A DNA stretch of 64,000 bases from the NCBI GenBank assembly GCA_015228875.1, contig JADGCS010000007.1, forward strand, positions 1,494 to 65,493, read 5' to 3'. Source of the DNA: Deltaproteobacteria bacterium (GTDB lineage: Bacteria; UBA10199; JADGCS01). Made by a program: the position numbers and the translations under genes. Positions 19,485 through 59,714 of this stretch are shown here, in pieces. The notes beneath the pieces are model-generated. The model ran no database searches and had not been told where the DNA came from. It saw only the letters and a program-made list of their open reading frames with translations. The stretch's first letter is position 1. Each line of letters begins with the position of its first letter.

Positions 19485-19565
19485 ATTGCGATCGGACATG
19501 AATAATTTCATGTCTGGCGCTATGCGCCAATTGCGATCGGATATGAATGATTTCATGTCCGGCGC
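19485..19565. repeat. Two tandem 36-bp palindrome-containing repeats (45-bp period) in the flgC-fliE intergenic region
   Basis: ATTGCGATCGGACATGAATAATTTCATGTCTGGCGC / ATTGCGATCGGATATGAATGATTTCATGTCCGGCGC. Each holds an 8-9-bp inverted repeat GACATGAA-N4-TTCATGTC. The palindrome GGCGCTATGCGCC lies between them. Confidence 0.7.
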
Positions 19566-19567
19566 GT

Positions 19568-19587
19568 AAAAAAAACCTTCCAAGGTT
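19568..19587 (-). terminator. Weak hairpin + U8 tract immediately after the flgC stop (possible attenuator)
   Basis: The minus-strand RNA reads AACCUUGGAAGGUU followed by UUUUUUUU. The stem is short and AT-rich. Confidence 0.3.
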
Positions 19588-28791: not shown

Positions 28792-28864
28792 GATTTACCT
28801 CTTTATTTGGCGCCTTTGAGTGCTGCGAAAATACCCACAAGCAAAGGCGTATGGTTTATGTTCA

Positions 28865-28974
28865 GGAATTTCAAAGTTGACAAACCGCGGGTGCCTGCCT
28901 CGCATAACGAGGCGACTCAACCGCGTCCCCCAAGGGGATTTCCTTCGGGGCATCAAAGTCAAGTCAGTCACTTG
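28865..28974 (-). mobile_element. MITE copy 6 (long variant) between ssb and the sigma-54 regulator gene
   Basis: GGAATTTCAAAGTTGACAAACCGCGGGTGCC…CCCCCAAGGGGATTTCCTTCGGGGCATCAAAGTCAAGTCAGTCACTTG. Confidence 0.8.
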
Positions 28975-33812: not shown

Positions 33813-33823
33813 CATGTTGACAC

Positions 33824-34309
33824 CTACTGCATGGTGATCAGCCCCGAATTGTTTATCGTGATGGTCTTGGTGTCCCCATTTTCATTGCGCAGGACAAAAC
33901 TCCCATCGCCATTGATCGCTGTGGGTGTCCCCACATCATCAAAGGTCACTGTGTCAGAAGCGGGAAAGGTAATCCCGTGGTACTCCTCGCCCGTGTTTGA
34001 AAGGTCCTCTGACATGGGCAGGTGATCGTAAGGAGAGGTCACCACGGTATCGGTGGCCACCTCGTAGACTTCGTACGTTGTCCCGCCCGCACCACCGGTG
34101 GTCCTTACTCCGTGGTCATTGCCGGTTGTCATCGAAAGATTCTGCGCGTATCTCATGTCACCCTCTAGTTTTCTCGCGGCACCGTCCAGCGTGATCGCCT
34201 GCGTGTCTGCAAGCATGGGAAAGGACGAGATAGCCACAATGGATACAAGAGCAAGGACCAGGACAAGCTCCATGAGCGAAAAACCCAGATTGTTGAACAA
34301 AAGTTTTTT
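33824..34309 (-). CDS. Type IV pilus minor pilin/pseudopilin (FimT/GspH-like) with a prepilin N-terminal methylation motif
   Basis: N-terminus reads MKKLLFNNLGFSLMELVLVLALVSIVAI (G-F-S-L-M-E class III signal). Start chosen at MKK (34309) inside the longer track ORF. Confidence 0.6.
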   Translation of the reverse strand, partial: KKLLFNNLGFSLMELVLVLALVSIVAISSFPMLADTQAITLDGAARKLEGDMRYAQNLSMTTGNDHGVRTTGGAGGTTYEVYEVATDTVVTSPYDHLPMSEDLSNTGEEYHGITFPASDTVTFDDVGTPTAINGDGSFVLRNENGDTKTITINNSGLITMQ

Positions 34310-34365
34310 CATAAATATTGCAACCGACTTTAACCCTACAAACAGCAATTGAACCACACTAAGCG

Positions 34366-34471
34366 ACAGGAGATACGGGATTTAATTGGGTTCGGAGAGT
34401 CAAAGTTGCTCACCCAACGGGTGAAGCACGGGAAGTCGCGTAGAACCCAATTAAATCCCGTATCTCCTGTC
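34366..34471. repeat. 27-bp perfect inverted repeat flanking a 50-nt spacer (large hairpin / small MITE-like element) inside the minor pilin operon
   Basis: ACAGGAGATACGGGATTTAATTGGGTTC … GAACCCAATTAAATCCCGTATCTCCTGT. The spacer carries a nested CACCC-AAC-GGGTG hairpin. Confidence 0.7.
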
Positions 34472-34500
34472 GCCTTGTATTCTTAAACTGCCGCTTCCAG

Positions 34501-34532
34501 GTTAACAGCCCCTATGATCAGGGGCTGTTAAA
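34501..34532. repeat. Perfect 13-bp-stem palindrome 20 nt downstream of the pilX-like stop
   Basis: GTTAACAGCCCCT-atgatc-AGGGGCTGTTAAC. No flanking U-tract. Confidence 0.6.
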
Positions 34533-34551
34533 CAAATGCCATGACCAACAA

Positions 34552-36111
34552 CTACTGCACCTGAGAGAGGCTCATGATCACCACAAGGTCCTGAAAATCT
34601 GCGCCGGTTGTATCGCCTTCGTTCATGTTTGTCCCCAGCTCGAAGAGATAGATCACCTGATTGGCCTCTATACTGACAAGACCGGCCTCATCGAGATAGG
34701 GTTCCAAAAATTCGGCCACACTCTGCTGATCCCCAAAACCAACCATGGCAGGCGGGGCGTCTCCATTAACCAGCGTTTGCACCTGGCTTAAGTTTGTTGA
34801 GTTGTAGGTCCTGCTAAAATTGTTGCACGAGGCAAGGCTCGCCGTGGCACGTATGACGTAATCGCTTTCTGTTGTCGTGGTTGTTTCGTAGGACTCGCCA
34901 CCGTCTACATCGGCGCCGCTATAGAGTGCAGAGCAGACATTATCCTTGCAAAGCTCGACACTGACGTTGATTTCGGCCCCACCCACACCACAGGTGATCG
35001 AGGAACCAATGACATCAAGGTCGACAAGGTAGTTGGTCTCGACAGTGACCACCCCGTTTGTGACCTCAAAACCCTCTCCCAGAGCAGCAGAGGCATCAGG
35101 GACATCACCCGCCCTGAAGGTGCTTTCAAGATGACTGCCGTCCGAGAAATCAAAGCGGACCGTGTACCAGCCGCCGGAGACAGGTTCTGCTGAAAAAGTT
35201 GCATCAACCAGATAATTGTTGTCGTTATCTGTCAGGTTGAAATTGGAAACGTCGATCTCCTGTCCGGCAGAGGCCGCTGCTGTTGTTGCTGCGGGGATCT
35301 CTCCCACCTTAAAGATAGAGGTTCCGTTGACATCAATCTGTTGCACCGTTGCGTCCAGGGTCTCGTCCTCACAGGCCGCAAGATCAACAAGCTGATCCCC
35401 GCTTGCCGTGCATGAGGTCACAACGGGAAGATCTGCCTCGCAGGGACCTATATAATCCTGATTGTGATGTTCACCCTCTCCATTGTTGTGGCCATTGCGC
35501 CACCCGGCCTCGTTAACAGAAAGTGTGTGCGCGTTTTCGGGATTCCCCGGCGGCACATGGCAGATCCAGAACTTGCCGTTTGGAGGCTCGCCAATACCCG
35601 ACTGGTCTGCCTCACATCCGATACCTACAGCGCACGCGCTCCAGTCCCATGACACTGTTACCTTGGTCAGGATAGCCACTTCATTACAGCCCTTGTCCAG
35701 CGACATATTAAAAACCTGGTTATCCTGCTTGATGGCCGTACTTAAAACATCATCGACACAACTCCCCGCAAAATTGGCATTGATGGTCTGGGTCTTGACG
35801 GCATTGCCCACAGTCGCTGTGACGGTGATGGTCCCGGCTGCAGGATCGGTGGTCACATCAAAAGAACCCTTGCCGTCGAAGGTCTTGTTTGTCACAGCGG
35901 GGTCGTCTCCTTTGGAGAGTTTGTCCAGCGCCCATTGAATCCCCCCGTTACCGTAGGCCAGTGCCTTGACAGAATCGCTGTGATTGGCAGAACTGGATGT
36001 GTCGGTTCCCGAGATATTAACCACGGTTGTCGCCGCCGCAGCAAGCACAACCATCACCACAACCGCACCCAGCAGACTGCTCCCTCTGTTGTTTTTAAGA
36101 GTGTTAAACAT
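34552..36111 (-). CDS. PilX-like type IV pilus minor pilin / putative tip-associated protein (large, Cys-rich)
   Basis: 519 aa. The N-terminus (MFNTLKNNRGSSLLGAVVVMVVLAAAATTV) resembles the PilX N-terminal domain. The rest is Thr/Asp/Gly-rich with many Cys. Position after pilV/pilW. Confidence 0.5.
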   Translation of the reverse strand: MFNTLKNNRGSSLLGAVVVMVVLAAAATTVVNISGTDTSSSANHSDSVKALAYGNGGIQWALDKLSKGDDPAVTNKTFDGKGSFDVTTDPAAGTITVTATVGNAVKTQTINANFAGSCVDDVLSTAIKQDNQVFNMSLDKGCNEVAILTKVTVSWDWSACAVGIGCEADQSGIGEPPNGKFWICHVPPGNPENAHTLSVNEAGWRNGHNNGEGEHHNQDYIGPCEADLPVVTSCTASGDQLVDLAACEDETLDATVQQIDVNGTSIFKVGEIPAATTAAASAGQEIDVSNFNLTDNDNNYLVDATFSAEPVSGGWYTVRFDFSDGSHLESTFRAGDVPDASAALGEGFEVTNGVVTVETNYLVDLDVIGSSITCGVGGAEINVSVELCKDNVCSALYSGADVDGGESYETTTTTESDYVIRATASLASCNNFSRTYNSTNLSQVQTLVNGDAPPAMVGFGDQQSVAEFLEPYLDEAGLVSIEANQVIYLFELGTNMNEGDTTGADFQDLVVIMSLSQVQ

Positions 36112-36194
36112 ACACGTACCCCCTTCTTTTTGGAAACTGGTTTTAGTAAACTATTAAATACCCCCCCACAACAAAACAAGACTCTCATGCACTG

Positions 36195-36743
36195 CTACTG
36201 ATAATTAACATACCCCAAAAAAGATCTGGGGATCACCGTTGTGCTCAGGGTGATACTCCCCTCTTCGTCCATAGGCTCGGTGGTCACCGTGATTTTAAAC
36301 CGTCTCACATCGGTAATACTGCCATCAACAGGCTCCAACACAGCACCGGTGCCATCTTGATACTCGATATCAAAGTCCTCAACCTTGGGAATAATAACGT
36401 CACTGTTACGAAAGACAGCAAGGCTCCCTCCGCTTGCGGACAGGCTGAATGTGGCCGGCTGCCCGTCTTCGTCTATAAAGCTCATGCTGCTTGCCGTGAT
36501 GCTGGAGATGTCCGTTGTTTCGAAATAGCGTATTTCGTGCACCATGCGATTTACAGCGTAACGCACATCGGCGATGGTGGTTTTTCTGTTGGCAATAAAG
36601 GAATAGGTCTTTGCCTGCTGAATCATGGTCTCGGAGGCGACACCAAAGATAATCCCCGCAATCACAATGGAAAGCACGATCTCAAACAGGGTAAAACCCC
36701 CGCTGCTTTTGAGACGCATTGACATGCTGCTGTTTTTTTTCAT
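36195..36743 (-). CDS. PilW-like type IV pilus minor pilin (prepilin-type N-terminal domain)
   Basis: Prepilin motif SGGFTLFEIVLSIVIAGIIF. The start is uncertain (36743 or 36725/36719) inside the longer track ORF. Confidence 0.55.
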   Translation of the reverse strand: MKKNSSMSMRLKSSGGFTLFEIVLSIVIAGIIFGVASETMIQQAKTYSFIANRKTTIADVRYAVNRMVHEIRYFETTDISSITASSMSFIDEDGQPATFSLSASGGSLAVFRNSDVIIPKVEDFDIEYQDGTGAVLEPVDGSITDVRRFKITVTTEPMDEEGSITLSTTVIPRSFLGYVNYQ

Positions 36744-37199
36744 TACGGCTCCCAAAGATGATCTGTATTCCTTGTGTCGCGGCATAGCACACCCATTAAA
36801 TTCCTTCCATCTTTTTTGTCCCCCCAGGCGATCCCTCAATTGATCAGAAGCAACCTCTGTGCCAACAATGCGCCACCTTTTCGCTTCACGGCAAAACTTT
36901 TATGCAACCAGCGCATTTTATTTTGCAAACTCCGCTCTGCCCGACCAGCTTCTGATTACTGCTGGCCATCTCCACCGTGATGGTGTCCCAAAAAAATATA
37001 TGCAGAACACAGGCCAACCAAAACCATGTCTTCAGGGAGTAAATGAGAAGGGTTGGGAAGGTGCCGGGCTTGAAACACCCTCCCAACCCAGGGAAGTGAA
37101 AAACAGAGAAGATCAACCTTTAACATCAACAGCAAACCGTGCGCGCTTCTTTCTCACAGGGAGACACAGATCTCATCACCACCCCCACATTCAGCACAA

Positions 37200-37661
37200 C
37201 TACATCACCCCTACAACAGCCTCCTCACCTGCAGATCCAATATCGGCAACAAGGGTGGATACCATGACTTTTTGATTATCTTCTGTACCCCAACGCACCA
37301 CAACGTCGACCTTCTTTATCCCGCTCCCCTCCTCCGGTGTGGTCAGATCGCTGGCAGATACCTCTGTGATCGTAACGATCCTGATGTATCCCTCAAAATC
37401 CCCTGTGAGTGTCTCGGCCGCGTACGTTTGAGAGTCTTCCACAATGTAACTGTAACCCACAAACTGATTATCAGCGAGTATACTTTCCACCTTTTCATTG
37501 GCAAGCTGAGAAGCAACTACGCTCATCTCCCGGTTGACAGACCGAGAGAGCGACCCCTGAGTCACACCCAAGCCACCCATCACGATGATCGAAAGGATGA
37601 CAACAGACAGCAGAGACTCCATGAGTGAAAAGCCTCTATTGTTTTTGAGCGATCTAATCAT
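37200..37661 (-). CDS. pilV: Type IV pilus modification protein PilV-like minor pilin
   Basis: N-terminus reads MIRSLKNNRGFSLMESLLSVVILSIIVMGGLG, a PilV-type motif. Start chosen at MIR (37661). Confidence 0.65.
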   Translation of the reverse strand: MIRSLKNNRGFSLMESLLSVVILSIIVMGGLGVTQGSLSRSVNREMSVVASQLANEKVESILADNQFVGYSYIVEDSQTYAAETLTGDFEGYIRIVTITEVSASDLTTPEEGSGIKKVDVVVRWGTEDNQKVMVSTLVADIGSAGEEAVVGVM

Positions 37662-37700
37662 ACCCCCCCCAAAGACCATTGCTTCCCCACATCACTCCCA

Positions 37701-40137: not shown

Positions 40138-42408
40138 TTGTTTTACTCCCACGAACCTGCCATCTTTTTTTTCATGGCACTGGCAATCCCCGCGTATCTG
40201 ACACCCTCTGCGCCCTTAACATCAGGGAATCTCAGTGCTGTCTGGCAAGGGCCCCCCCCCGATACAAGCCGTTCATTCTTTTCGCCAGAAATGCAGTCTT
40301 ACTTTGAGGGGCTCACCACCAGAGGGCTTGTGCGCAGGCCCCCCGCCCTGTTTAATGCAACACAACAGCGGGTGTTCTGTCCGCCCGGCCTCAGAGAATC
40401 AGCACAAATCACAGAAACACGCAGGCCCCCCGCCACACACGAGGACCCCATTGTTCATGCCGATCCTTTCCGTTGGCTCGAAACAGACTCGCCAGAGCGC
40501 GACCGCTGGCTCTCTGCTCAAAACGCTTATTCAAAGCGTTTTTTTAGAGGACTCAAGTGTCACACACGGTGGGAGTCCATCTTTAGAAATCTTTTTAACG
40601 AACCCAATGTCATAAAGTCCGTTGATCTTGGCGATCTCAGCATAGAACTGATCGACAGGGGTCTTAACAAACCAACCGAGCTTGTTGTCAAAAAGGGTGG
40701 CAAGGAAATCAAAACCCTCTTTTCAACCCACAGCCTTGCGCGCAACGGCACTGCCGCAGCCACAAGTTTCGAGATCGATCCCAACCAAAAATACGTGATC
40801 CTGCCCGTGTCCCGCAGGGGTTCCATCGATAACTACGATCTTTACGTTATCAACATCCGTACAGGCAAAACGCTTGAAATAGTCAAAAACGCTAGGGGCA
40901 ACGGCTGGCTCTCCTGGCTGTCGGCGGATACCTTTAAGTACAACAGACTTGTCGGTAGGGACGAGATTACACTTATTCATAAACTGGGGAGCAGCAGGGA
41001 TGGGATAGGGCAGGACAGGTTTTTAGAAACCAACGCCCGATTCTTTAACTCAAAAGATCGGGATGTCGTCTTTCGCAGCACACCGGACAACACATGGGTC
41101 AAAGCAATGAGCGGCAGCAAATGGAAACGCCTTAATGTGGTTGTTCAAAGGGACTTTGGCCAGATTGGCGATGAAAGACTTGTAGAAATCAAACACAATG
41201 GCAAAACAAAACTTGCCAAATTGACACTCAACAATACCACAGAGGGACAAGCCAGGGCTGCTACCGTGCAAGTTGTTCACGAAGCACAAGAAGACGCTGT
41301 GATAAAAAACATCACAAGAAACGAAGATCACATCGTGATACATTACGCTTATGGCAAAAAGCAGTGGCTGGAAGTCCTTAAATCCGATGGCACAAAAGAG
41401 AACGCATTCGACCTGCCTGATTGTTTTTCAATCACCCACATGGATTTTGTGGACAAGACCACATTAACGCTGACACTCACCTCTAATGTCATCAGAAAAA
41501 AAGACTTCAAGTTCGATATTGCAACGGGCCTTTTTGTTGACGCTGATCCTCAAACGGAGATGACAACCGATGAAAAGGGGCAGGTGTTTGTCACAGAGTA
41601 TGTTGAGGTGGTCAGCAAGGACGGTACAAAGGTGCCGGTGAGACTCACTTATAAAAAGGGGCTTGTTAAAAATGGGCAAAACCCCGTGCTGATCGAGGGG
41701 TATGGCGGCTTTAATGTCCCCGGGCATTTTTATCCCGCGTTCAGCACACAATTAAAACACTTTATCGATCATGGTGGCGTCTACGTAGCCCCTGCCTTAA
41801 GGGGAGGAAACGAACTTGGAGAGAGCTGGCACAAACAGGGCATGAAAGAAAAAAAACAAAACGTCTTTAACGATCTCTTTGCCACCGCAGAGTTTCTTAT
41901 TAAAGACCAGCTCACGCAGCCAAAAAAGATCGCCGCAATGGGTTGGTCAAACGGCGGGCTGCTCATGGCGGTTGCCGCCACCCAGCGTCCCGATCTTTTT
42001 GGTCTTATCATTGCCGGTAATGGTGTTCACGACATGCTCAGGCGCGACAATCTTGATCCCGAGTTTAACGACGGCTGGGCTTATGAGTACGGCCATACCC
42101 AAGACCCCAGGCAGTGGCCTTATTTCGAGGCCTATTCACCCGTCCATAACGCACGCCCCAGTCCCCACATGCCAACGGTGCTTGTCCTTGTTGGCAGAAA
42201 CGACTCGCGGGTTGACCCCGCCCACTCCTATAAGTTTGCCGCAGCCCTGCAGAAGGTGAGTCACCCGGATCAAAAAATTCTCTTAAGCAGCATGCCCAAT
42301 GCCGGCCACTGGATGACGTACGAAGATCTGCAGGATCTCATTGGCTGGTGCAGCAATGCGCGTATCTGGTCCACCATTTTTGAAACGCTGGGGATGGAGG
42401 TGGCTTGA
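40138..42408 (+). CDS. Prolyl oligopeptidase (S9A serine peptidase) with an unusual Pro-rich N-terminal extension
   Basis: Beta-propeller plus alpha/beta hydrolase with GWSNGG nucleophile. The PEP N-terminal motif (VHADPFRWLETDSPERDRWLSAQNAYSKRFF) begins ~100 aa into the ORF. The true start is uncertain. Confidence 0.85.
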   Translation: MFYSHEPAIFFFMALAIPAYLTPSAPLTSGNLSAVWQGPPPDTSRSFFSPEMQSYFEGLTTRGLVRRPPALFNATQQRVFCPPGLRESAQITETRRPPATHEDPIVHADPFRWLETDSPERDRWLSAQNAYSKRFFRGLKCHTRWESIFRNLFNEPNVIKSVDLGDLSIELIDRGLNKPTELVVKKGGKEIKTLFSTHSLARNGTAAATSFEIDPNQKYVILPVSRRGSIDNYDLYVINIRTGKTLEIVKNARGNGWLSWLSADTFKYNRLVGRDEITLIHKLGSSRDGIGQDRFLETNARFFNSKDRDVVFRSTPDNTWVKAMSGSKWKRLNVVVQRDFGQIGDERLVEIKHNGKTKLAKLTLNNTTEGQARAATVQVVHEAQEDAVIKNITRNEDHIVIHYAYGKKQWLEVLKSDGTKENAFDLPDCFSITHMDFVDKTTLTLTLTSNVIRKKDFKFDIATGLFVDADPQTEMTTDEKGQVFVTEYVEVVSKDGTKVPVRLTYKKGLVKNGQNPVLIEGYGGFNVPGHFYPAFSTQLKHFIDHGGVYVAPALRGGNELGESWHKQGMKEKKQNVFNDLFATAEFLIKDQLTQPKKIAAMGWSNGGLLMAVAATQRPDLFGLIIAGNGVHDMLRRDNLDPEFNDGWAYEYGHTQDPRQWPYFEAYSPVHNARPSPHMPTVLVLVGRNDSRVDPAHSYKFAAALQKVSHPDQKILLSSMPNAGHWMTYEDLQDLIGWCSNARIWSTIFETLGMEVA

Positions 42409-42491
42409 CAAGTGACTCACTTGACCTTGACGCGATTGAGTGCTTCTATCATGCAAAGAATGAGCCCGCGCTCAATCAGCTTTGAAATTCT
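42409..42491 (+). mobile_element. MITE copy 7 (short), starting immediately after the prolyl oligopeptidase stop
   Basis: CAAGTGACTCACTTGACCTTGACGCGATTGAGTGC…GAGCCCGCGCTCAATCAGCTTTGAAATTC. Confidence 0.75.
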
Positions 42492-42502
42492 TGGACTTCG
42501 AG

Positions 42503-42949
42503 TTACAGCGGTGCAGCTGATTTTTGTTCCCTGTAGACATGAACCGAGGCCTCACCGGACGATATGATACCCAATTCCTTTGCCGCCGCAAAGGACACAT
42601 CTATCCCGCGCTCTTTGACAAAGGGACCGCGGTCATTAACCCTGACAATCACGGTCTTTTGGTTGGCTGTGTTCTTGATAAGCAACCTCTCCCCAAATGG
42701 AAAAGTTCTGTGTGCAGCGGTCATCATGTGCATGTCGAAAGTTTCTCCGCTTGCCGTTTTTTTTCCGTGAAATTCCCTGCCGTACCAGCTTGCCTTTGAT
42801 GCAAAAGCAAATTTGAATTTGTAAACCTTGACTGTCTGTTTGACAATCTCTGGCTTGATCGGCGCCGTTGCGCAGCCATTAATAAATAAGCCAAACAACG
42901 CCGTCATGACCGCAAGACAGATGATTTTTTTGTTTGAGATTGTCGTCAT
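42503..42949 (-). CDS. rlpA: RlpA-like lipoprotein (double-psi beta-barrel)
   Basis: 148 aa. Lipobox (LFINGC) and a DPBB motif (ASWYGREFHGKKTASGETFDM…VIVRVNDRGPFVKERGIDVSFAAAKELG). Confidence 0.8.
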   Translation of the reverse strand: MTTISNKKIICLAVMTALFGLFINGCATAPIKPEIVKQTVKVYKFKFAFASKASWYGREFHGKKTASGETFDMHMMTAAHRTFPFGERLLIKNTANQKTVIVRVNDRGPFVKERGIDVSFAAAKELGIISSGEASVHVYREQKSAAPL

Positions 42950-43997: not shown

Positions 43998-44588
43998 ATG
44001 AAGTCATGTTTACAAGTTACTCACTTGACTTTGACGCGATTGAATTCCTTCATTTTGCGAGGAGTGCGCCCGCGCTCTGTCGACTTTAAAATTCCTATCC
44101 ATAAACATGCCGCCATCGTTTTTTTGTATTTTATCGTTTTGTTCCTCCCTTTTTTAAGCCTTGCAAAAGAAAAGAGGGATGGGCCAGACTGCAAGGGTAA
44201 GTGCTCTGTCATCAATAAACAATGCGATGCGCATTGTGCGTTAAGTCCCAACGCGGGCGATTGTCAAAAGGGGTGCAATGCCTCCTTTAAGGATGCCAAG
44301 GGTTACTGCCTGAGTAGTTGTGCCACACAGCCCACGTTTTTAGAGCCTTGTCCCGGCTCGGGGGACGACCCCTCCGTCGAAAAAACCGAGGACGACTGTC
44401 TGTATTCCTGTGAGGATCACTACAGCAACTGTGTGCTGTCCTGCAGGGGCCATTTTGAAGGCGGTTCTCCCGGGATCAAAAACTGCTACAACAGCTGTAA
44501 CGATACCTTTGCCGAGGAAGAGGGGTTCTGCAAGTTTCAGTGCAGAACCGATTTTGATTTTATGGCGGTGTGTGCGGCAGAGGAATAG
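43998..44588 (+). CDS. Small Cys-rich, probably secreted, protein whose 5' end is formed by a MITE copy
   Basis: 196 aa. A hydrophobic segment (AAIVFLYFIVLFLPFLSLA) is followed by ~26 Cys in CxxxC/CxxC arrays. Codons 5-33 are translated from the MITE copy at 44013-44095. A GGGGGTG RBS precedes the ATG. Confidence 0.5.
   Translation: MKSCLQVTHLTLTRLNSFILRGVRPRSVDFKIPIHKHAAIVFLYFIVLFLPFLSLAKEKRDGPDCKGKCSVINKQCDAHCALSPNAGDCQKGCNASFKDAKGYCLSSCATQPTFLEPCPGSGDDPSVEKTEDDCLYSCEDHYSNCVLSCRGHFEGGSPGIKNCYNSCNDTFAEEEGFCKFQCRTDFDFMAVCAAEE
44013..44095 (+). mobile_element. MITE copy 8 (short) inside the 5' coding region of the Cys-rich protein gene
   Basis: CAAGTTACTCACTTGACTTTGACGCGATTGAATTCC…GTGCGCCCGCGCTCTGTCGACTTTAAAATTCC, translated as QVTHLTLTRLNSFILRGVRPRSVDFKIP. 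Confidence 0.8.
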
Positions 44589-44978: not shown

Positions 44979-47684
44979 ATGTCGTTTCATGCCGTCAACC
45001 GCCTGCACCAGGCCCTTTCTGCATCACCCTTTGCCGCTACTGTTGCGCTTAACACGGCAGCCAGCGTTCATGCTTTGTATCACGCCCACACATTGCGGCA
45101 GCTCGCGACAGTGCTCGCAGATCAGGACAAGGCCCTCGGCACACAGATGGGTACGATTGTCAACCATACCAGATTTAAAACAAGCTCGGATGAATTTAAA
45201 ACAGCATGGGACGATTATGTGGGCCTGATTGAGCAAGGCCCTGCCCCCGAAACACCCACAACCGCACAAGTTACTAACTTGACTTTGACGCGATTGAGTT
45301 TCCTCGCCATGCGAGACATACCCCCGCGCTCTGTCGACTTTGAAATTCCCAGACATCAAGAAGATCACACCATGCTGCGTGGCAACACCCTTCTCGAAGC
45401 CATCCAGCAAAAACTTGCGTTTCCAGACACCCGATACAAATGGATGACTCAGGTTCTTGCAGGCACAACCCCTGGGAGAGCAGTAAGCGACCAGGGGCTG
45501 GCCCTCATGATGGAGGCTCAAAAGATTCAGGTCTTTCTTGGTCGTGTCCCCAAAGACGATCCTCACTTTCGTGTGCGTTTAAGCCGCGATGGGTCTCTGG
45601 TGGTTGTCACACTGGAGTGCCCCGATACTTTAAAGGTCCTCTCCGAACCCATCGTGCAACACCTGTTAAGGGCGGGATTACTGACCTACCTCTGTCGGCC
45701 ACAACCCGTCACACGCCCCCATGCCACAACAGTAAGCAGGTATGACATAGAAAAAATCCACATCATAGACAAAGAAATCGAGAGCTACACAAAATTAATC
45801 AGGGTGCTTAAAAGCGAGGGCTATGTAAAACTCTCCGAAGCAATTTTGAAAACCATACAGACCGAAAAAGGGATTACCCCGCAGACACTCATTGATGCGG
45901 CCTATGAGATCTCAAAGATCAACGAGTTGCTGGGACTTCATCTCTTGTTCACCGCGATGAAGGCCTCTCTCGAAGCAACCGAAGGATCACCACATGTTGC
46001 AGTAAAAGCCTTTATTGAGACATTACAGACATCAAACTCATCATCCTATGCAGGCAAGCTCGCCCCGGTACCTATACAAGTCCTTCACCAAACCATCATG
46101 CGGACATCCATTAGTAACCCCGACAGAAGACAATGGTTTTTGAAAGGTCTTGCGTCCCTTGGTATAATAAACCGGGAAAAAATATTGGACCAACCTCCCG
46201 TCAGCATGTCCAAAAGACGGGCCGTGAATATCAGGATATCAAGGGTCCCGGGGACATTCTTTAAGCTACATCCCAGAGGGATGCGCGGGGCATCTCTGTT
46301 AACTATTGACATTGGCATCCCTCATTCTGTCGATTACTTAAGCGAGGAGCAGCTTAAGATCCTCGTCTGCGTTACGCTTGCGACCATGGCGTTTAATAAA
46401 GACGATCCAGACGCACTGCTGGCCAATGAGCTGGATGAAAAAAGTCTTGCATTGCCAGCAACAATCCTTAAACCTGCCGCCAATATTGAGCTGTCTGACG
46501 AGCACCTTATCCAAACCGGTTTGCATCACCTTGCACAAGAACAAAGGGCAGACGTGCTGTCGACCATCAGAATGTTTCAGGAGAGTTCCTGTTTAACGGC
46601 CCCATTCTCCGGCATCCCCAACGCAGGTCATATTTTTAGGCCGCTCACAAGGTACTATGTGGTTGCTTTACGGGTCTACATCACTGTTGATGAGAGGATT
46701 TTAGAACCTCTCGTGTATGCCACGTCTCGTGATCACAGGATCACACTGCGCATCCAGTGTGCCAGCAAGGATCTTGCAAAGATTGATTCGAGGGCACTGA
46801 TATCTGCTGTCTTGAAATCTCTGGACGGCACAAGTGGCCACATGCCCTTCAGACTGCTTGAGCCCCTCATCAATCCTGACGCGGTCAATGCCTTGGTGGC
46901 GCTTGAGATCTTGCAGGCCTATCTCGCAAGCCCCGTCACGCTCCCCGAACGTATTAAAATTAATGGTAGTGAAGTAACCAAAGACGTCAGAAAAAATCTT
47001 GGCCTTGCCATGATGGCGTTACACGATTTTAGCAGATACACCGATAGTCCGCTTCTCAAGGACTTGAGCGCCGGCATGCTTGTGGTCCAGCTCTATCATG
47101 TTCAGACATGGGTCACGAAGGACGAGACAACCACCATCACCGCCCTGCCAACAGACCGCGGTATTTTTATACAGATTATGGGCAGCGAGCAGAGTATAAG
47201 TCCAAGACAGTGGCTTTATCTGCTCACAGCGATGGCCGATAACCCCGGAAAGGCTGTGAGTATACGCATCGAAGGCACAGATATCCATCTGGTTTTTGGA
47301 GAACATCATGCAGGCCATGATCTTTATGCCAACATCATCAGTGACGTGAGGTTATTACGATTTGAAGTCTTTGATCCCAACGCCAAAAGGCCGCGGGTCT
47401 CTCCAAAATTTCCTGGTAACAAGCCCGCCCACGCGAATCCAAATTTTATGAAACATTCAGAGGCCGAACGACGGGCCTTTATCAGGGCCTTGATCTGGTT
47501 TGCCTATGCCCCGATACCCGATGAGTTTAAACCAACGGCAACCGACACAATGGGTGAAATTAAAAAGAAAAGAAGGGCCATGAGTTTTGCCTATCATCCA
47601 GACAACGCGCCATCAAAAGACAACATCGAATTATTTACAACAGCCAACTCATTCTGGGACACTGTAGAAGACATGAATGAATAA
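44979..47684 (+). CDS. Large hypothetical protein, paralog A, with a C-terminal J-domain-like region (HPD motif) and an in-frame MITE insertion
   Basis: 901 aa, colinear with paralog B, with ~60 % identity in the C-terminal third. The C-terminus reads EIKKKRRAMSFAYHPDNAP…ELFTTANSFWDTVED, matching J-domain helix II-HPD-helix III. Residues ~97-125 are encoded by the MITE at 45267-45349. Confidence 0.7.
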   Translation: MSFHAVNRLHQALSASPFAATVALNTAASVHALYHAHTLRQLATVLADQDKALGTQMGTIVNHTRFKTSSDEFKTAWDDYVGLIEQGPAPETPTTAQVTNLTLTRLSFLAMRDIPPRSVDFEIPRHQEDHTMLRGNTLLEAIQQKLAFPDTRYKWMTQVLAGTTPGRAVSDQGLALMMEAQKIQVFLGRVPKDDPHFRVRLSRDGSLVVVTLECPDTLKVLSEPIVQHLLRAGLLTYLCRPQPVTRPHATTVSRYDIEKIHIIDKEIESYTKLIRVLKSEGYVKLSEAILKTIQTEKGITPQTLIDAAYEISKINELLGLHLLFTAMKASLEATEGSPHVAVKAFIETLQTSNSSSYAGKLAPVPIQVLHQTIMRTSISNPDRRQWFLKGLASLGIINREKILDQPPVSMSKRRAVNIRISRVPGTFFKLHPRGMRGASLLTIDIGIPHSVDYLSEEQLKILVCVTLATMAFNKDDPDALLANELDEKSLALPATILKPAANIELSDEHLIQTGLHHLAQEQRADVLSTIRMFQESSCLTAPFSGIPNAGHIFRPLTRYYVVALRVYITVDERILEPLVYATSRDHRITLRIQCASKDLAKIDSRALISAVLKSLDGTSGHMPFRLLEPLINPDAVNALVALEILQAYLASPVTLPERIKINGSEVTKDVRKNLGLAMMALHDFSRYTDSPLLKDLSAGMLVVQLYHVQTWVTKDETTTITALPTDRGIFIQIMGSEQSISPRQWLYLLTAMADNPGKAVSIRIEGTDIHLVFGEHHAGHDLYANIISDVRLLRFEVFDPNAKRPRVSPKFPGNKPAHANPNFMKHSEAERRAFIRALIWFAYAPIPDEFKPTATDTMGEIKKKRRAMSFAYHPDNAPSKDNIELFTTANSFWDTVEDMNE
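45267..45349 (+). mobile_element. MITE copy 9 (short) inserted in-frame within paralog A
   Basis: CAAGTTACTAACTTGACTTTGACGCGATTGAGTTTCC…CCCCCGCGCTCTGTCGACTTTGAAATTCC, read as QVTNLTLTRLSFLAMRDIPPRSVDFEIP. Paralog B lacks these ~29 residues at the aligned position. Confidence 0.85.
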
Positions 47685-47712
47685 AAAATACTTGGAATAA
47701 AAATAAAAAGTA

Positions 47713-47748
47713 CCTGGCACCAAAAAAAATTTGGCACCAAAAAAAATT
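47713..47748 (+). repeat. Tandem 18-bp direct repeat (C)CTGGCACCAAAAAAAAT x2 upstream of the paralog B gene
   Basis: Direct duplication is visible. Each unit carries a TGGCAC (-24-like) hexamer but no TTGC -12 element. Confidence 0.6.
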
Positions 47749-47961
47749 CATCGCGACTGTCAGTCAAAAAAACTTCCCAAAAAAAGAAAACAAATAATCA
47801 AGCAATATCCACAACATACAGGGTATAAAAAAAACAGGCAACACGCAGGCCCCTGGCGACGATATTCCTGGTATGTTTAGGAGCAAACATAAGGTCGGAT
47901 GTTTTTTGTATCCCTCTGACTTTTGTATTAAAAAATCACAAACAAAGGTAGCAATTTAAAA

Positions 47962-50709
47962 ATGAGTTTTCCAGCCGTCAACAACCTGCATCAAGCCCTT
48001 GCTCAGTCGCCATTTGCGGGTGCAGTTGCGCTTAACACAAGGCTGCCGACTGACCTTTTGTACGACTTTGGCACACTGCGACAGCTCGCAGTAATACTTT
48101 CCGGTCAGGATAAAGTTTTGGCTGCCGAGGTCAAGGCGGTCACTGCAATACCTCATCGAAAAAATACTCCGAGATTTGATCGGCAATGGAGTGACTGCGT
48201 GAGTCTTATCGCAGGCAGGCAGTCCGCAAGAAGACAACAGCCAGAAACAGGAGAGCAAACAGCCCTGACAGGCAACACCCTGATTGAAGCCGTCCAACGG
48301 CAACTCGATGATAGAACAACCAGACAAGAATGGATCTCCCGCGCACTCGCCAGGGTCGGGGCAAAACAACGCACCAAAGAGGTGGTACTTGCACACATCG
48401 AACCCGTTAACAATCTCAGACTGCAGCTTGGTCCTGTCAGCAACAGAGACTATCGTGTGCAATTAAATGAACAGGGTGAGCTTGTGGTCGTCACCATGGA
48501 ATGCCCCAGCTCGTTAAGAGTCTTCTCGATGCCCATTGTAGAGCACCTGCTGGGCATGGGACTCAGGGCGTATTTTTTCACACCCCCCGCTCCCGCAAGC
48601 CCCCTTTTTACCAAGGTCTCCGCCGCAGATATCGAAGGCATTCATTCCGTCGATCAGGAGGTTGAACTCAACGCAGAATTAATCAGGGCCTTACAAACAG
48701 CAGGGTTTAATAAACTCTCCCAAGATGCAGTAAAAAAATTGAGGGAAAGAAAAGGCCTTGACCCGCAAACACTTATAGACATTGCATTTGAAGTCTCGGA
48801 GACCCACAAACACACAGGGCTTCAACTTTTAAGCACCGCCTTAAAGGCCAAAATACAAGATAATCATAAATCACTTTATGCCTCATGGAAGTTATTCTGC
48901 AACCAACTGATTTCGATGGATAGCAAAGAGAAGGGCAAGCCAGTCCCGGTCTCGATGGAGGATCTACAAGAGACCATTCTACTGACATCCATCGAAAACC
49001 CAGATAGAAGAAAATGGTTCGAGGACGGCCTTAAGTCCCTTGGTGTCCCCAATCCCAAGGCCATACTGGATGAAAAGCCGATTGATCTTGACAAGAGAAA
49101 GGCCGTTTATATCAAGATAAGCAGAACCCCGGGCAACGCATTTCATCTAGACCTTGATGCACCCGTTGGCGCATCCTCCATGCTGCTTAATATCGGTGTC
49201 CCTCGTTCGGTGACACACTTAAGCAAAGATAACATAAAGCTCCTGGTCGCTCTTGCCATTGTTAAAGAGGCGTTTGGTGATTACAACTCGGATAATCTGA
49301 TCGCCGAAACTGTGACGCTACAAAGCCTCTCCTCACCAAAAGACCTGCTCAAACCCCTCGCGTCGATGACACTATCAGCAGATAGTTACCGCAGAATCAG
49401 TGCGGACAGCCTTTCAAGGGAGCAACAGAAAGAATTGCAGGCGGTGATCCATATGTTTAAAGCCCTCACGAGCGTTGCCGCCCAGCAACACGCAAAGGAA
49501 TCTGAGGGCAGTGTTTTTCGAACAGAAAAAAGATCTCACGAAAAAATAATCGCCGGCGTAGCAGACAAACTTGAGCCCTTGTTTGCCATCCCCCATGCAG
49601 AGCATTTTTTTAAGGCCCTGAGCAAATGCCACATTGCCGATTTTAATATCGCCATCACGGTTGATGACACGATTGAGGGCCCGGTTGTTTCTGCACGGGC
49701 CATGGCTAAAAAGATCACATTTTTTATTAAGTGTGCCCACAAGGACATCCCCCAAATTAATGCACAGACACTGATAGCCCTGGTCCTCAGGTTTTTTGAC
49801 CGCGGTCTTGCCTCATCAAACAAACTGTTTGATCCACCCACCGAGCCCGATTCGATCATGGCCCTCGCAGCGCTCGAGGTGCTTCAAGAATTTCTTGTTT
49901 CTCCCAACACACCGCCAGAGAGGCTTGCCGTCACCGGCAGCGACGAAACCAAGCCCGTCAGGCAGGCGCTTGGTCACGCCATGATGGCGCTGCACGATTT
50001 TAGTAAGAGAACCGACAACCCGCTCCTCGGACACTTAAGCACCAACATGCTTTCTGCCCAGCGTTATCATGTTCAGGTGTTGACCACCACAGATGACACC
50101 ACAACCATCACAGCCCTGCCAACAGACCGCGGTGTTTTTATACAGATTAAGGGCAAGCAACAAAACATTAACGCAAAACAGTGGCTCTATCTGTTAACGG
50201 TGCTGGCAGATAATCCCGGAAAAGCAGTCTGCATCTGCATCAGGGGCAATGATATCAGCATTGTTTTTGGAACCCACAAGGCTGGCCGTGACCTCTACGC
50301 CAGTATAATCAGCGACGTGCGGCTGTTACGGTTTGGGGTCTTTGATCCCGCTGCCAAGAGGCCACAGGTCTCTCCAAAATTCCCCGGCGACAAGGCGGCC
50401 GATGCACATCCAAACTTTATGCAGAGTCCCTTGGCTCTGCGGCGGGCCTATATCAAGGCATTGATCTGGTTTGCCTATGCCCAAATACCCGATGAGCTTA
50501 AACCAACGGCCACTGATACCCCGAATGAAATCAAACAGAAAAAAAAGGCCATGAGTTTTGCCTATCATCCGGACAGACTCGGTCAACAATATAGAGGGGC
50601 AGAACTGGCAGAAAAAGCAGAGTTGTTCAAAACAGCCAACACGCATTGGGATACTATTGAGGCCATGAATAACGTGAACACACAATTTAACACACCAACT
50701 GATGCATGA
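47962..50709 (+). CDS. Large hypothetical protein, paralog B, with a C-terminal J-domain-like region (HPD motif)
   Basis: 915 aa. Shares the N-terminus MSF(H/P)AVN(R/N)LHQAL and a long conserved C-terminal block (QWLYLLT…ADNPGKAV…IISDVRLLRF…RALIWFAYA…KAMSFAYHPD) with paralog A. Confidence 0.7.
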   Translation: MSFPAVNNLHQALAQSPFAGAVALNTRLPTDLLYDFGTLRQLAVILSGQDKVLAAEVKAVTAIPHRKNTPRFDRQWSDCVSLIAGRQSARRQQPETGEQTALTGNTLIEAVQRQLDDRTTRQEWISRALARVGAKQRTKEVVLAHIEPVNNLRLQLGPVSNRDYRVQLNEQGELVVVTMECPSSLRVFSMPIVEHLLGMGLRAYFFTPPAPASPLFTKVSAADIEGIHSVDQEVELNAELIRALQTAGFNKLSQDAVKKLRERKGLDPQTLIDIAFEVSETHKHTGLQLLSTALKAKIQDNHKSLYASWKLFCNQLISMDSKEKGKPVPVSMEDLQETILLTSIENPDRRKWFEDGLKSLGVPNPKAILDEKPIDLDKRKAVYIKISRTPGNAFHLDLDAPVGASSMLLNIGVPRSVTHLSKDNIKLLVALAIVKEAFGDYNSDNLIAETVTLQSLSSPKDLLKPLASMTLSADSYRRISADSLSREQQKELQAVIHMFKALTSVAAQQHAKESEGSVFRTEKRSHEKIIAGVADKLEPLFAIPHAEHFFKALSKCHIADFNIAITVDDTIEGPVVSARAMAKKITFFIKCAHKDIPQINAQTLIALVLRFFDRGLASSNKLFDPPTEPDSIMALAALEVLQEFLVSPNTPPERLAVTGSDETKPVRQALGHAMMALHDFSKRTDNPLLGHLSTNMLSAQRYHVQVLTTTDDTTTITALPTDRGVFIQIKGKQQNINAKQWLYLLTVLADNPGKAVCICIRGNDISIVFGTHKAGRDLYASIISDVRLLRFGVFDPAAKRPQVSPKFPGDKAADAHPNFMQSPLALRRAYIKALIWFAYAQIPDELKPTATDTPNEIKQKKKAMSFAYHPDRLGQQYRGAELAEKAELFKTANTHWDTIEAMNNVNTQFNTPTDA

Positions 50710-50745
50710 GTTGTTAATGCATTATTAATTTAAACATGCCAATGA

Positions 50746-52734
50746 TTGGCAGACAAGGAGAGAAAAATGTTACCCACAACCCCAAGAGTATTAACCGTAC
50801 AAACAATGCAGACCCCATCCGCCCTGATACAGGCCGTCAAGAGCACCTTTACAGACCTGCCAGACGCACCCGTCATGACACCGCACCAAACAGCAGAGTT
50901 CGAAAGGCTGGGGCACGCGCTTACAAGTCAAGGAGCAACAAAACACGGCATGGCATTGGTAAGAGCCTGCAGCAATACTGCTGCGGCTTCACCTGTAGAA
51001 TATACCAAACAGATAGTACGCGCTGTCGAAGCGCTCAGCAACGTTGAGACGCCCGCCTTTACCCTCGGCGGTGTGGCACTTGCAAAGGCTGGCGAGGTTT
51101 ATGGATTAAGACCTGAGCGGCAGGCGGATCCCACAAGTACCGAACTCACACAGCAATTGGATACGGGGTTAATAACTGAAACCCTTGATGTTGATATTGG
51201 CCATGATACTGGCAGCGAAAAGTTGGAAAAACCAGAGCCTGTTTTTTATCCCCACAATACAACACCCAAGGAAGAATCCGCCGTTGCCCTTGACCAGGCC
51301 ACCCTCGCAAGAGCAAGGACCAACATGGCAGAGGCAATGACTGCGCTTGCCAACGAATCCCCCATGCTCCCAGCCATGCTGCCCCTGCACCTTTCTGCCC
51401 TTATTATGGGAGAGATCAATGCCAATGTGGATCTGAGAACCGAGGCGGTCAGCTTTATTGCAGAGAGCGTCTACAATGCCACAATTTACGGTGCGGCTGT
51501 CATTGCCAATGTTGTCGATACAGGCCGCTTTCACCTGCCGCTCACCACAATCCCCGTCACCTGGAGCTCGCGCGTAGCCGACGAGGCACCACAGGTCGCA
51601 GATGCTATTGTCAATGGCATCGAAAATGTTCAAAATATCTTAAGAATAATAAGATCCTTGCGCGTAGCATACCCCGAGGCAATGGCATCACTGGCAACTG
51701 CTAATCCGGGTGCCTTTGGACCAGAGGCGCTCAGAGAACTTGGTAACATATATCAACTGCACGAATTGGCCGCCACACACCCGGCGCAAGACCTGGTGGA
51801 TTTTATCCTTGCAGGCGACATCCCCGTCCGATTTGTGAGCTTGGGGGAAGATCATGAGCTGATTAAGGTCAGGGCGCCGAGGTCTGATGGTCAACCCGTG
51901 AACTCAACACCAAGTGATTGGGCCGATCCCGTAAGCAATTTTTTGCAACGTGCGGATTGGACAGATTATGTGCGGACTTTCGATATCAAGGAATTCATTG
52001 CCGACTCCATGCCGACAGCATCCCAAGCAGAACAAAAAGTCCTTATCCATGTCCGTGAACTTGACTATCAAAGTAATCAAAGCAGGGCCTTCGAAATACT
52101 GTTGTCGAAAATCCTGCTTCCAAGACTCAAAGAGGAGGTCACAAGCCTCAACACATGGGGGATCACCCAGTTTGACATAGTCCCTGCAATGATAGAAGCA
52201 ATGATCGGGCGCGGTGAATACCAACAGGCACTGGTGCTCTATAATTTTACGCATAGCAGACTCCAGGAGATCTCTAACGCCGTGAACAGGATCGAATACC
52301 ATCAGGAGAGACTGTTCTTGATCGGAGAACGAAAGGCGCGCAATAAATTTCTTGCACTGGCCCGCCGGATGATTCGGGATGGCAATCTTGAGGCAGCACA
52401 ACGCCTCTCTCGTTCGATGGCCAGACAGGGCAGGGGCAGAGAGCCCGTGGTCAGGATAAAACAGGGGGCCCTCTCAAAACAACTGAGTTCAGTTGTTGCC
52501 TTCATTGCCGAGTCCATGAGGTCCTTGGGGGCGCTTCCCGCAGGCGAAGCCACACTCAGTCTCGCGAGTTCTGTGCCGTCCACAGCCTCTCTGATGGATT
52601 TCCGGAAATTCGACCCTCGGCTCAGCGTCGCTGATTACCTTGCGTTGTTTGGGATCCCTGCCCCGGGAAGCAAAGATGTACCCGCCCTTGGGGTTAGCGG
52701 GGCAACGGGATTTCGTGCAGGTAAAAGGCAATAG
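50746..52734 (+). CDS. Hypothetical protein (662 aa), last gene of the putative sigma-54 operon
   Basis: Long ORF with an AAGGAG RBS, 36 nt after the paralog B stop. No recognisable domain. Confidence 0.55.
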   Translation: MADKERKMLPTTPRVLTVQTMQTPSALIQAVKSTFTDLPDAPVMTPHQTAEFERLGHALTSQGATKHGMALVRACSNTAAASPVEYTKQIVRAVEALSNVETPAFTLGGVALAKAGEVYGLRPERQADPTSTELTQQLDTGLITETLDVDIGHDTGSEKLEKPEPVFYPHNTTPKEESAVALDQATLARARTNMAEAMTALANESPMLPAMLPLHLSALIMGEINANVDLRTEAVSFIAESVYNATIYGAAVIANVVDTGRFHLPLTTIPVTWSSRVADEAPQVADAIVNGIENVQNILRIIRSLRVAYPEAMASLATANPGAFGPEALRELGNIYQLHELAATHPAQDLVDFILAGDIPVRFVSLGEDHELIKVRAPRSDGQPVNSTPSDWADPVSNFLQRADWTDYVRTFDIKEFIADSMPTASQAEQKVLIHVRELDYQSNQSRAFEILLSKILLPRLKEEVTSLNTWGITQFDIVPAMIEAMIGRGEYQQALVLYNFTHSRLQEISNAVNRIEYHQERLFLIGERKARNKFLALARRMIRDGNLEAAQRLSRSMARQGRGREPVVRIKQGALSKQLSSVVAFIAESMRSLGALPAGEATLSLASSVPSTASLMDFRKFDPRLSVADYLALFGIPAPGSKDVPALGVSGATGFRAGKRQ

Positions 52735-58579: not shown

Positions 58580-58626
58580 TGATTTGTTGGTACAAAAATT
58601 CTCCCATCAACACAATTTAATGTCTA

Positions 58627-58710
58627 GGAATTTCAAAGTTGACAGAGCGCGGGTGCGTTCCTCGCATAACGGAGGAACTTAAATCGCGTCAAAGTCAAGT
58701 TAGTAACTTG
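58627..58710 (-). mobile_element. MITE copy 10 (short, inverted orientation) between the SNF2 helicase and the TPR gene
   Basis: GGAATTTCAAAGTTGACAGAGCGCGGGTGCGTTCC…GCGTCAAAGTCAAGTTAGTAACTTG. Confidence 0.8.
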
Positions 58711-59651: not shown

Positions 59652-59714
59652 GGGGGCGTTTTGACAGAAACAACAACCATAAGTCAATTGATCAGTGTAG
59701 AAAAACAGCCCACC

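Follow-up and report, generated by a model that had tools for sequence, protein, structure and literature searches.

The Rickettsia palindromic elements (RPE; Ogata et al. 2000) are short palindromic repeats that are located both in intergenic regions and inside open reading frames (ORFs), where they are read through in one frame (PMC10969869, PMC3184786). In-frame fusions of repeats with genes have been described as "not unusual" in bacteria, the examples including ERIC, BOX, QMITE1, the Anabaena MITEs and others (PMC10969869, PMC3184786). The elements of ERIC/IRU and RU-type (Delihas 2007), BOX/RUP/SPRITE (Croucher 2011), QMITE1 (PMC5896051) and the Anabaena MITEs are hairpin-prone intergenic repeats that occasionally extend or interrupt a gene in frame, or provide it with a new C-terminus and stop codon, and many of them carry clear terminal inverted repeats (TIRs) and target duplications (TSDs) or have a known IS partner. 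The REP/REPIN sequences, which are mobilised by the IS200/IS605-like RAYT transposases, consist of inverted half-sites around a variable spacer; they are found in either orientation at the ends of genes in operons and carry no TSD. Intragenic in-frame copies are atypical of REPINs.

Here we describe a repeat from a metagenome-assembled contig of an uncultured Deltaproteobacteria bacterium, of which a 64-kb stretch (hereafter the window) was analysed. The repeat represents a new family that is RPE-like in its behaviour. As in the case of RPE (approximately 100-150 bp), a dispersed palindromic repeat is present both between genes and inside ORFs, and its read-through in one frame adds a conserved peptide at apparently tolerant places of the protein structure, with three of the nine full copies touching coding sequence. 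The RPE host is an obligate intracellular alphaproteobacterium, whereas the genome studied here is that of a flagellated bacterium with ordinary housekeeping genes; the repeat is also shorter (93 or 120 nt, the low end of the RPE range), and the likeness is one of behaviour and not of sequence, homology to RPE sequences not being expected for a Deltaproteobacteria host. The first-pass annotation had drawn the same parallel, which is apt for behaviour, but had considered such read-through otherwise rare, in disagreement with the reviews that list several bacterial in-frame fusions (PMC10969869, PMC3184786). With the ERIC, BOX, QMITE1 and Anabaena-type elements the repeat shares the formation of a gene end, as a TPR gene terminates inside one copy (58617-58710), but it belongs to another sequence family and another lineage, and the TIRs, TSDs or IS partner of many of these elements are absent in the window.

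A dispersed repeat with two size forms

Using nhmmer, we identified nine full copies of the repeat (E values between 1e-25 and 1e-30) and two fragments on both strands of the window (Table 1). A 31-nt pattern taken from the 5' end of the repeat gave six matches in the window, against none expected from 100 shuffles, and the full copies are 78-92% identical to the family consensus (n=9). The conserved core extends over 90 nt (CAAGT...CAT) or, when taken as CAAGT...CATnAA, over 93 nt, corresponding to 31 codons, while the long form of 120 nt is composed of these 93 nt plus a nested 27-nt hairpin. Both forms are multiples of three and share one open frame; frame-breaking indels occur in two of the intergenic copies, and the peptide read from the repeat is variable at its centre across copies. 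For the copy in gene A, the first-pass annotation had proposed the extent 45267-45349, of which the start agrees with our analysis and the end does not, the conserved core reaching 45356-45359. It had also supposed that 83 bp plus a short TSD would restore a multiple of three; as the core of 90-93 nt is already such a multiple, no TSD is needed for keeping the frame.

Most of the surviving copies are located at the ends of genes, where the spacers are very short, four of them within the flagellar operon. Seven copies lie outside the two host genes and were counted as intergenic, in both orientations, and only two of the three copies touching coding sequence are internal. The TPR gene (58695-59861, minus strand) runs into the third, from which it takes its final 4-5 codons (DKLLT) and its stop codon, the TGA of the element. 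At the copy in the fliK/flgD spacer, the fliK stop is located 2 nt from the 3' end of the repeat and the Shine-Dalgarno sequence of flgD adjoins the 5' end. The copy at 42409-42501 is flanked by the genes for a prolyl oligopeptidase (stop TGA at 42406-42408) and a DPBB/RlpA-like protein (stop at 42503-42505).

Table 1. Repeat copies and associated protein-coding genes, in coordinates of the 64-kb window.
Feature	Position	Strand	Location or remark
Long-form copy (93 nt plus nested 27-nt hairpin insert)	3950-4069	-	fliR/flhB spacer, sense to genes; fliR stop TGA directly adjoins
Long-form copy, 2-nt deletion	8315-8432	+	fliL/fliN-like spacer, antisense to genes
Repeat copy	11209-11301	+	fliK/flgD spacer, flagellar operon, antisense to genes
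Repeat copy	14195-14287	+	fliI/fliJ spacer, antisense to genes
Repeat fragment, matches repeat 5' end	15638-15665	+	fliH/fliI spacer; weak, E 0.02
Long-form copy	28855-28974	-	between diverging ssb and sigma-54 response-regulator genes
Repeat copy	42409-42501	+	whole spacer of two convergent genes
Cys-rich secreted-type protein gene (HQM16_02500), 196 aa	43998-44588	+	second host gene
Repeat copy in Cys-rich protein gene	44013-44105	+	codons 6-36
Gene A (HQM16_02505, MBF0104176.1), 901 aa	44979-47684	+	host of insertion
Repeat copy in gene A	45267-45359	+	93 nt, codons 97-127
Gene B (HQM16_02510), 915 aa	47962-50709	+	tandem paralog of A, 45-48% identical, without insert
Repeat copy, 1-nt indel	58617-58710	-	end of TPR gene

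The repeat core contains a 5' hairpin of 6-7 bp and an interrupted central hairpin with imperfect internal pairing. All copies maintain this architecture, with 93% of the cells paired against 21-46% when the partner was slid, and four pairs show compensatory change (1.0 expected). By eye and in the folds, imperfect inverted half-sites, AAsTTGAC..GnCGCGG and CCGCGC..GTCAACTT, are recognised around a variable spacer, though missed by the repeat finder. In this organisation, as well as in the location at gene ends within operons, the use of both orientations and the absence of a TSD, the repeat resembles REP/REPIN, but the half-sites are imperfect and no RAYT gene is present in the window. A role as intrinsic terminator was rejected, as no T-run follows the hairpin on either strand.

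The repeat is small, multi-copy, dispersed and devoid of transposase coding, as MITEs are, and had at first been labelled a MITE. That status is not established, because we found no inverted pair of at least 8 nt as terminal inverted repeats (6-nt seed; three copies with flanks), no TSD of 2-6 nt common to the copies over a range of boundary offsets apart from a trivial internal CA, and no transposase, RAYT or other mobilising gene among the Pfam domains of about 47 ORFs scanned in the 64-kb window. No Rfam family matched the repeat at gathering or E-value thresholds. The ends given here for the repeat are tentative, and so is the absence of a TSD. The repeat was not found in scans of metagenome contigs and viral contigs, nor among the matches listed from genome contigs, where its absence is unproven. 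The repeat appears to be lineage-specific, and its mobility is read only from the dispersed copies, since it was not found in the other sequences searched.

Copies inside gene A and the Cys-rich protein gene

Gene A codes for a protein of a rare family, whose members have a length of about 900 aa and an HPD (J-domain-like) motif at the C-terminal end. The first-pass annotation had recognised an in-frame repeat copy inside its 901-aa ORF, lacking in paralog B and inserted into a pre-existing gene, and all these points were borne out. The copy, which shares 85% identity with the family consensus, contains no stop or frameshift and is read as QVTNLTLTRLSFLAMRDIPPRSVDFEIPRHQ (residues 97-127 of protein A). 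Opposite to this insert, paralog B shows a gap of 32 residues (about 29 in the earlier estimate), and among nine aligned full-length family members the 32-column block is present only in protein A, being absent from paralog B and from seven distant full-length homologs (8/8), the latter originating from other metagenomes of different samples with a GC content of 55-57%. At the loci of three distant homologs, the repeat is absent. Upstream of the insert, the N-terminus of A is conserved in B as well, and translation of A therefore starts before the element. Taken together, the comparison strongly supports the view that the repeat was inserted into the pre-existing gene A with the frame kept. 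In the alignment of A and B, a difference of 96 nt is slightly preferred over 93 nt, the divergence being too high for resolution of single codons, and therefore the boundaries of the insert are not fixed by the paralog comparison. A search with A or B for an empty site returned A alone and missed even paralog B, indicating a doubtful sensitivity; of 189 pattern matches for related loci in metagenome contigs, none was confirmed.

The alignment around the insertion site is gappy and unconserved, this being the most variable linker of the family. In the AlphaFold model of A, residues 88-136 form the only long segment with pLDDT below 50, and the insert thus probably sits in a disordered linker that follows the N-terminal helices. 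One junction peptide expected from protein A with the insert would be TPTTAQVTNLTLTR. As for the designation as J-domain protein proposed earlier, two residues of the HPD motif, H and D, are indeed invariant across the family, but the match of Pfam DnaJ (PF00226) to the C-terminal 84 aa of A gave 18.8 bits (E 0.0018), below the cut-off of 27.8. DnaJ matches at E<0.01 were obtained for three of the nine family members, Foldseek gave a local match to the Ydj1 J-domain (44 columns, rmsd 1.7, E 4.5), and a fold search with whole protein A against PDB gave no significant match. These matches hint weakly at a J-domain in protein A.

The second internal copy is located in frame in the gene for the Cys-rich protein, following the start codon and preceding the hydrophobic core (residues 38-56) of the signal peptide. 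This gene had also been noted at first pass as carrying an in-frame copy; the frame is correct, but the copy occupies codons 6-36 of the 196-aa ORF and not 5-33. Its proposed donation of the start codon is contradicted by the upstream sequence: the start ATG at 43998, also annotated by NCBI, is preceded 6 nt upstream by the Shine-Dalgarno sequence GGGGGT and lies 12-14 nt upstream of the repeat. After removal of the 93 nt, a canonical signal peptide consisting of MKSCL, HAAIVFLYFIVLFLPFLSLA and KEK is left, indicating that the element was inserted after the start codon, which does not come from the element. The protein minus residues 6-36 reads MKSCLHAAIVFLYFIVLFLPFLSLAKEK, and of the 139 residues that follow the putative cleavage site, 18 are Cys. 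No homologs of the Cys-rich protein were found, and for this reason it is regarded as an orphan. As for RPE, the insertion in gene A is in frame and the segment is missing from the homologs; the Cys-rich gene likewise carries its copy in frame, with no homolog to compare.

Origin of the in-frame copies

The explanation that we consider highly probable is the spread of this dispersed repeat through the chromosome, in the course of which two copies landed in frame in tolerant coding sites and a third made the end of the TPR gene. The lineage-specific small repeat would have been moved, presumably, by a trans-acting enzyme, and two copies would have entered coding sequence in the sole sense phase without stop codon. 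Since the unit is a multiple of three, both host ORFs were kept, each with an addition of 31 residues. The insertion in gene A may have been tolerated in a hypervariable, probably disordered linker, and that in the Cys-rich gene in the signal-peptide n-region, which is positively charged; both would persist because tolerant places were hit. The third copy would have replaced the extreme C-terminus and the stop of the TPR gene.

The direction of the event, an insertion in A and not a deletion in eight homologs, is argued for by the family comparison. An ancestral gene segment, from which the intergenic copies were derived or which was lost in the other members, would need many independent precise deletions, and the same block occurs in a second, unrelated gene, while the remaining seven copies lie between genes in either orientation and share conserved hairpin features of non-coding character. 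The placement by aligners of QVTNLT of A opposite EQTALT of B is the one observation in its favour, and this reading, otherwise a formal possibility, is effectively refuted. An assembly artefact, namely a repeat-induced chimeric join, might be suspected for a contig from a metagenome-assembled genome (MAG), as repeats can mislead assemblers, but the copy in gene A has a sequence of its own (75-87% identity to the others) and is short enough to fit within a typical read, and the ORF is in frame and colinear with its homologs before and after the insert, as would not be expected of a random chimera; we regard an artefact as very improbable.

Gene A and gene B are tandem paralogs, for which redundancy is plausible, and the repeat peptide has no homolog-supported role. 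Gene A could then be a duplicate in decay, either already a pseudogene or on its way to loss, with the insertion as damage that stops or frameshifts have yet to follow and with B carrying the function. We consider such decay unlikely, because the 2.7-kb ORF of 901 codons is intact although the inserted copy has diverged by 15% from the consensus, because the insert is located in the sole long low-confidence linker and not in the folded part, and because protein A retains all 38 of the 38 family-invariant residues, including H873 and D875 of the HPD motif. Over the whole A-B comparison dN/dS amounts to 0.29, falling to 0.18 for the C-terminal 260 codons; with dS near saturation (1.56), these values are no proof of constraint since the insertion. 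From these features we infer that gene A is still functional.

A selected role of the element inside genes, with its peptide (for interaction or targeting) or its RNA/DNA hairpin (as regulatory structure of mRNA) being co-opted and the lengths of 93 and 120 nt reflecting selection for coding compatibility, would agree with the shared open frame of both forms, with the contribution of codons by about one third of the copies and with the compensatory changes in hairpin pairs. The open frame is, however, no better than in neutral simulation: one copy contains stops, against 1.5-1.9 expected (P 0.39-0.52, a test of only nine copies with low statistical power), and an antisense frame is equally open. 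The idea that one frame is always open thus received no support beyond chance, and selection for an open frame was rejected. The frame-breaking indels of the two intergenic copies and the variable peptide centre also speak against co-option, which we judge improbable, and the added peptide may well be selectively neutral. A search for the repeat peptide in other proteins gave no match from seven candidates, but also missed A itself and is therefore uninformative.

Implications for the genome and for RPE-like repeats

As it stands, the finding extends a known phenomenon and reveals no new one. It offers a clean example of a dispersed or selfish repeat that adds a peptide without destroying the protein, in a lineage without earlier description, and for annotation it indicates that three gene models in this MAG owe part of their sequence to a repeat. 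A true counterpart of RPE outside Rickettsiales is a tentative and rather doubtful proposal. It would be a family that, in a flagellated bacterium of free-living type, systematically colonises coding genes genome-wide, with about a third of its copies contributing codons as in this window, and whose units of 93 and 120 nt were both shaped to multiples of three with one frame free of stops; if correct, the repeat would repeatedly provide proteins with new peptide segments, signal-peptide extensions and C-termini. Should the whole genome carry in-frame copies at the same frequency, RPE-like colonisation of proteins would extend beyond obligate intracellular bacteria and their reduced genomes.

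The dispersed repeat and its copies

The repeat noticed in the first-pass annotation was found to be real, as 31 nt of its 5′ end, used as a pattern, gave 6 matches in the window against 0 expected from shuffles. The window has a GC content of 48.7% and is a 64-kb piece of a 65,640-bp contig, from a metagenome-assembled genome that NCBI labels 'Deltaproteobacteria bacterium'; a profile search of the window identified nine full copies (E 1e-25 to 1e-30) plus two short fragments. The five canonical copies align without gaps. The conserved core starts at CAAGT and measures 90 nt if it is taken to end at CAT, and 93 nt if the end is CATnAA, so that the 83 nt previously assigned to the element is too short. 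Identity to the consensus is 78-92% across the copies and 85% for the copy within gene A, the host gene described below.

In three copies (3950-4069, 8315-8432 and 28855-28974) the same 27-nt hairpin, GATGCCCCGAAGGAAATCCCCTTGGGG, is nested after ACTTT with GA at each side; the length of this insert is likewise divisible by three, and the QVT frame stays open through it, reading MPRRKSPWG. Either these copies form a sub-family, or the hairpin is itself a tiny element lodged within the larger one. Beyond the 93-nt core, the tail CGAGTTACAG is common to copies 42409 and 8315 (42498-42512 and 8429-8443), and three other copies carry yTAC at roughly the same offset. In copy 42409 the TTA of the tail forms the TAA stop of an antisense DPBB/RlpA-like gene, so that the element may supply this stop, and the true 3′ end of the repeat is uncertain.

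Two hairpins are kept across copies, one of 6 bp on the 5′ side (CAAGTTAnTAACTTG) and a central one that is interrupted: 93% of hairpin cells are paired, compared with 21-46% after sliding of the partner, and compensatory change is seen at 4 pairs against 1.0 expected. In folding energy the copies surpass shuffles by a modest margin only (z -0.9 to -2.6). The proposed classification as a MITE was not established, because neither a terminal inverted repeat of at least 8 nt in the element, nor a target-site duplication of 2-6 nt common to the copies, nor a transposase or RAYT gene within the window was found. An Rfam search with the element matched no family. Scans of metagenome and viral contigs did not find the element, nor did it occur among the matches listed for genome contigs. 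Small dispersed palindromic repeat, RPE (Rickettsia palindromic element)- or REPIN-like, is the safer label.

The first 20 kb of the window hold a flagellar cluster with a complete export and basal-body set. Four copies (one sense, three antisense) and the two fragments lie wedged in its short spacers, and therefore probably form part of the operon transcript; if the element were removed, the spacers that hold copies would measure only ~0-20 nt. With its first base the element borders directly on the TGA stop of a prolyl oligopeptidase gene (42406-42408) in one copy and on that of fliR (4070-4072) in another; at its 3′ end, the stop codons of fliK, fliI and the DPBB gene are 1-2 nt away. A TPR gene runs into copy 58617-58710 and terminates at the element's own TGA (DKLLT*). 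Codons are added to annotated genes by 3 of the 9 copies.

Positions of the repeat copies (profile search) and of the associated features
Feature	Position	Strand	Remark
Repeat copy	3950-4069	-	
Repeat copy	start 8315	+	
Repeat copy	start 11209	+	
Repeat copy	start 14195	+	
Repeat copy	28855-28974	-	
Repeat copy	start 42409	+	
Repeat copy	start 44013	+	in Cys-rich gene
Repeat copy	start 45267	+	in gene A
Repeat copy	58617-58710	-	
Flagellar cluster	660-20022	-	flhA, flhB, fliR, fliP, fliO, fliN/M-like, fliL, flgE, flgD, fliK, fliJ, fliI, fliH, fliG, fliF, fliE, rod protein
Orphan ORF run	30879-37679		977, 177, 519, 214, 159 aa
DPBB/RlpA-like gene	42503-42949		
Cys-rich gene (HQM16_02500)	43998-44588	+	196 aa
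Long hairpin	44852-44934		
Gene A (HQM16_02505)	44979-47684	+	901 aa
Gene B (HQM16_02510)	47962-50709	+	tandem paralog of A
TPR gene	58695-59861		
Distant homolog locus L001	7963-15177		own contig
Distant homolog locus L002	8373-16099		own contig
Distant homolog locus L003	3863-11255		own contig

The copy in gene A

The copy at 45267-45359 forms codons 97-127 of gene A and is translated as QVTNLTLTRLSFLAMRDIPPRSVDFEIPRHQ, and the paralog B, 45-48% identical to A, shows a 32-residue gap at the insert position. A search of 1.84 billion representative proteins with a profile of A plus B gave a family of only 23 members, among which seven distant homologs, at 20-22% identity, are full-length (~900-930 aa). 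In the alignment of nine sequences the insert block is present in A only, B and all seven distant homologs being without it, and this comparison, which the first-pass annotation had named as able to refute its reading, favours insertion into a pre-existing gene. The insert site is the gappiest and least conserved part of the same nine-sequence alignment, and in the AlphaFold model of A (mean pLDDT 71.7) the sole long segment with pLDDT below 50, residues 88-136, brackets the insert. Three distant homologs were traced to contigs of other samples (GC 55-57%), on which no repeat copies were found. Neither a close ortholog nor an empty site was found by a search for related loci in metagenome contigs or by the word-indexed protein search, the negatives of which need caution because, with A as query, it recovered A only and missed even the 45%-identical B, present in the collection.

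Ahead of the insert, A and B share a conserved N-terminus (MSFxAVNxLHQAL..SPFA..VALNT), and thus translation of A begins upstream of the element. The ORF is unbroken across 2.7 kb while the inserted copy is already 15% diverged from the consensus, all 38 family-invariant residues are retained in A, and comparison of A with B gives an overall dN/dS of 0.29 and one of 0.18 for the C-terminal 260 codons, with dS near saturation. From these features of the sequence we infer that gene A is probably functional.

The description of A as a J-domain protein is weak: although the HPD-containing C-terminal motif KYRAMSxAWHPDR is conserved in the alignment of the family, the Pfam DnaJ match of A (18.8 bits) is below the cut-off of 27.8, DnaJ matches at E<0.01 were obtained for 3 of 9 members, and in Foldseek the protein as a whole matched nothing, the one result being a local alignment of 44 columns to the Ydj1 J-domain. 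A J-domain-like C-terminus is plausible rather than demonstrated. At each of the three distant loci, two large proteins without Pfam domains (~690-840 aa) come after the ~900-aa HPD-motif protein, and in the window (44979-52734) A and B are followed by one such protein only, of 662 aa; the arrangement looks like a conserved, uncharacterised gene cluster. A run of five ORFs has no Pfam match at E<=1e-5 and, added to A, B, the Cys-rich protein and the ORF of 662 aa, makes the region unusually orphan-rich. A long near-perfect hairpin (GTCATTGCGAGCGAAGCGCGGCAATCCAG, 16 nt, CTGGATTGCCGCGCTCACTACATGCGCTCGCAATGAC), single-copy in the window and distinct from the repeat studied here, is located 45 nt upstream of the gene A start; its sole Rfam match, mir-2001, is at chance level (E 0.034).

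The copy in the Cys-rich gene

The copy at 44013-44105 forms codons 6-36 of the Cys-rich ORF, the start of which agrees with the NCBI annotation. The element had been read as apparently donating or preserving this start, but the ATG, with a Shine-Dalgarno-like GGGGGT 6 nt upstream, precedes the element by 12-14 nt, and the start codon is therefore not donated by it. The strongest hydrophobic stretch of the protein is residues 38-56, and removal of residues 6-36 leaves MKSCLHAAIVFLYFIVLFLPFLSLAKEK, a predicted Sec signal peptide of textbook form. When the insert is present, the n-region is a long one of positive charge (7 K+R vs 1 D+E). Signal peptides usually tolerate such n-regions, a tolerance that would extend to the insert-bearing protein. 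A homolog search for the Cys-rich protein found none, leaving no comparator that lacks the insert.

The open frame and its meaning

The repeat consensus is free of stops in one sense frame (QVT...) and one antisense frame (..NFKVDRAR..RQSQVSNL). After simulation in which each copy was given its observed number of substitutions, stops in the QVT frame were expected in 1.5-1.9 of 7 copies against 1 of 7 observed (P 0.39-0.52), with the same outcome for the antisense frame; translation of the copies, suggested earlier as a check for an always-open frame, thus gave no more openness than chance. Since, in addition, two intergenic copies carry frame-breaking indels, nothing indicates selection on the frame. 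The simplest reading of the in-frame copies is a survivorship filter: a unit of 93 nt leaves the frame unshifted in every case, one third of the phase-and-orientation combinations are stop-free, and insertions would persist only in tolerant protein regions.

This in-frame behaviour matches that of RPEs and, more widely, the in-frame fusions of ERIC, BOX, QMITE1 and Anabaena MITEs. According to a 2024 review, in-frame repeat fusions are 'not unusual', and RPEs are distinguished by their frequency (PMC10969869); 64 kb is too little sequence to judge whether the present repeat reaches such a frequency. Delihas (2011) lists internal fusions and 3′-end extensions for several repeat families (PMC3184786). 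The behaviour is already known; the repeat family that shows it here, and its lineage, are new.
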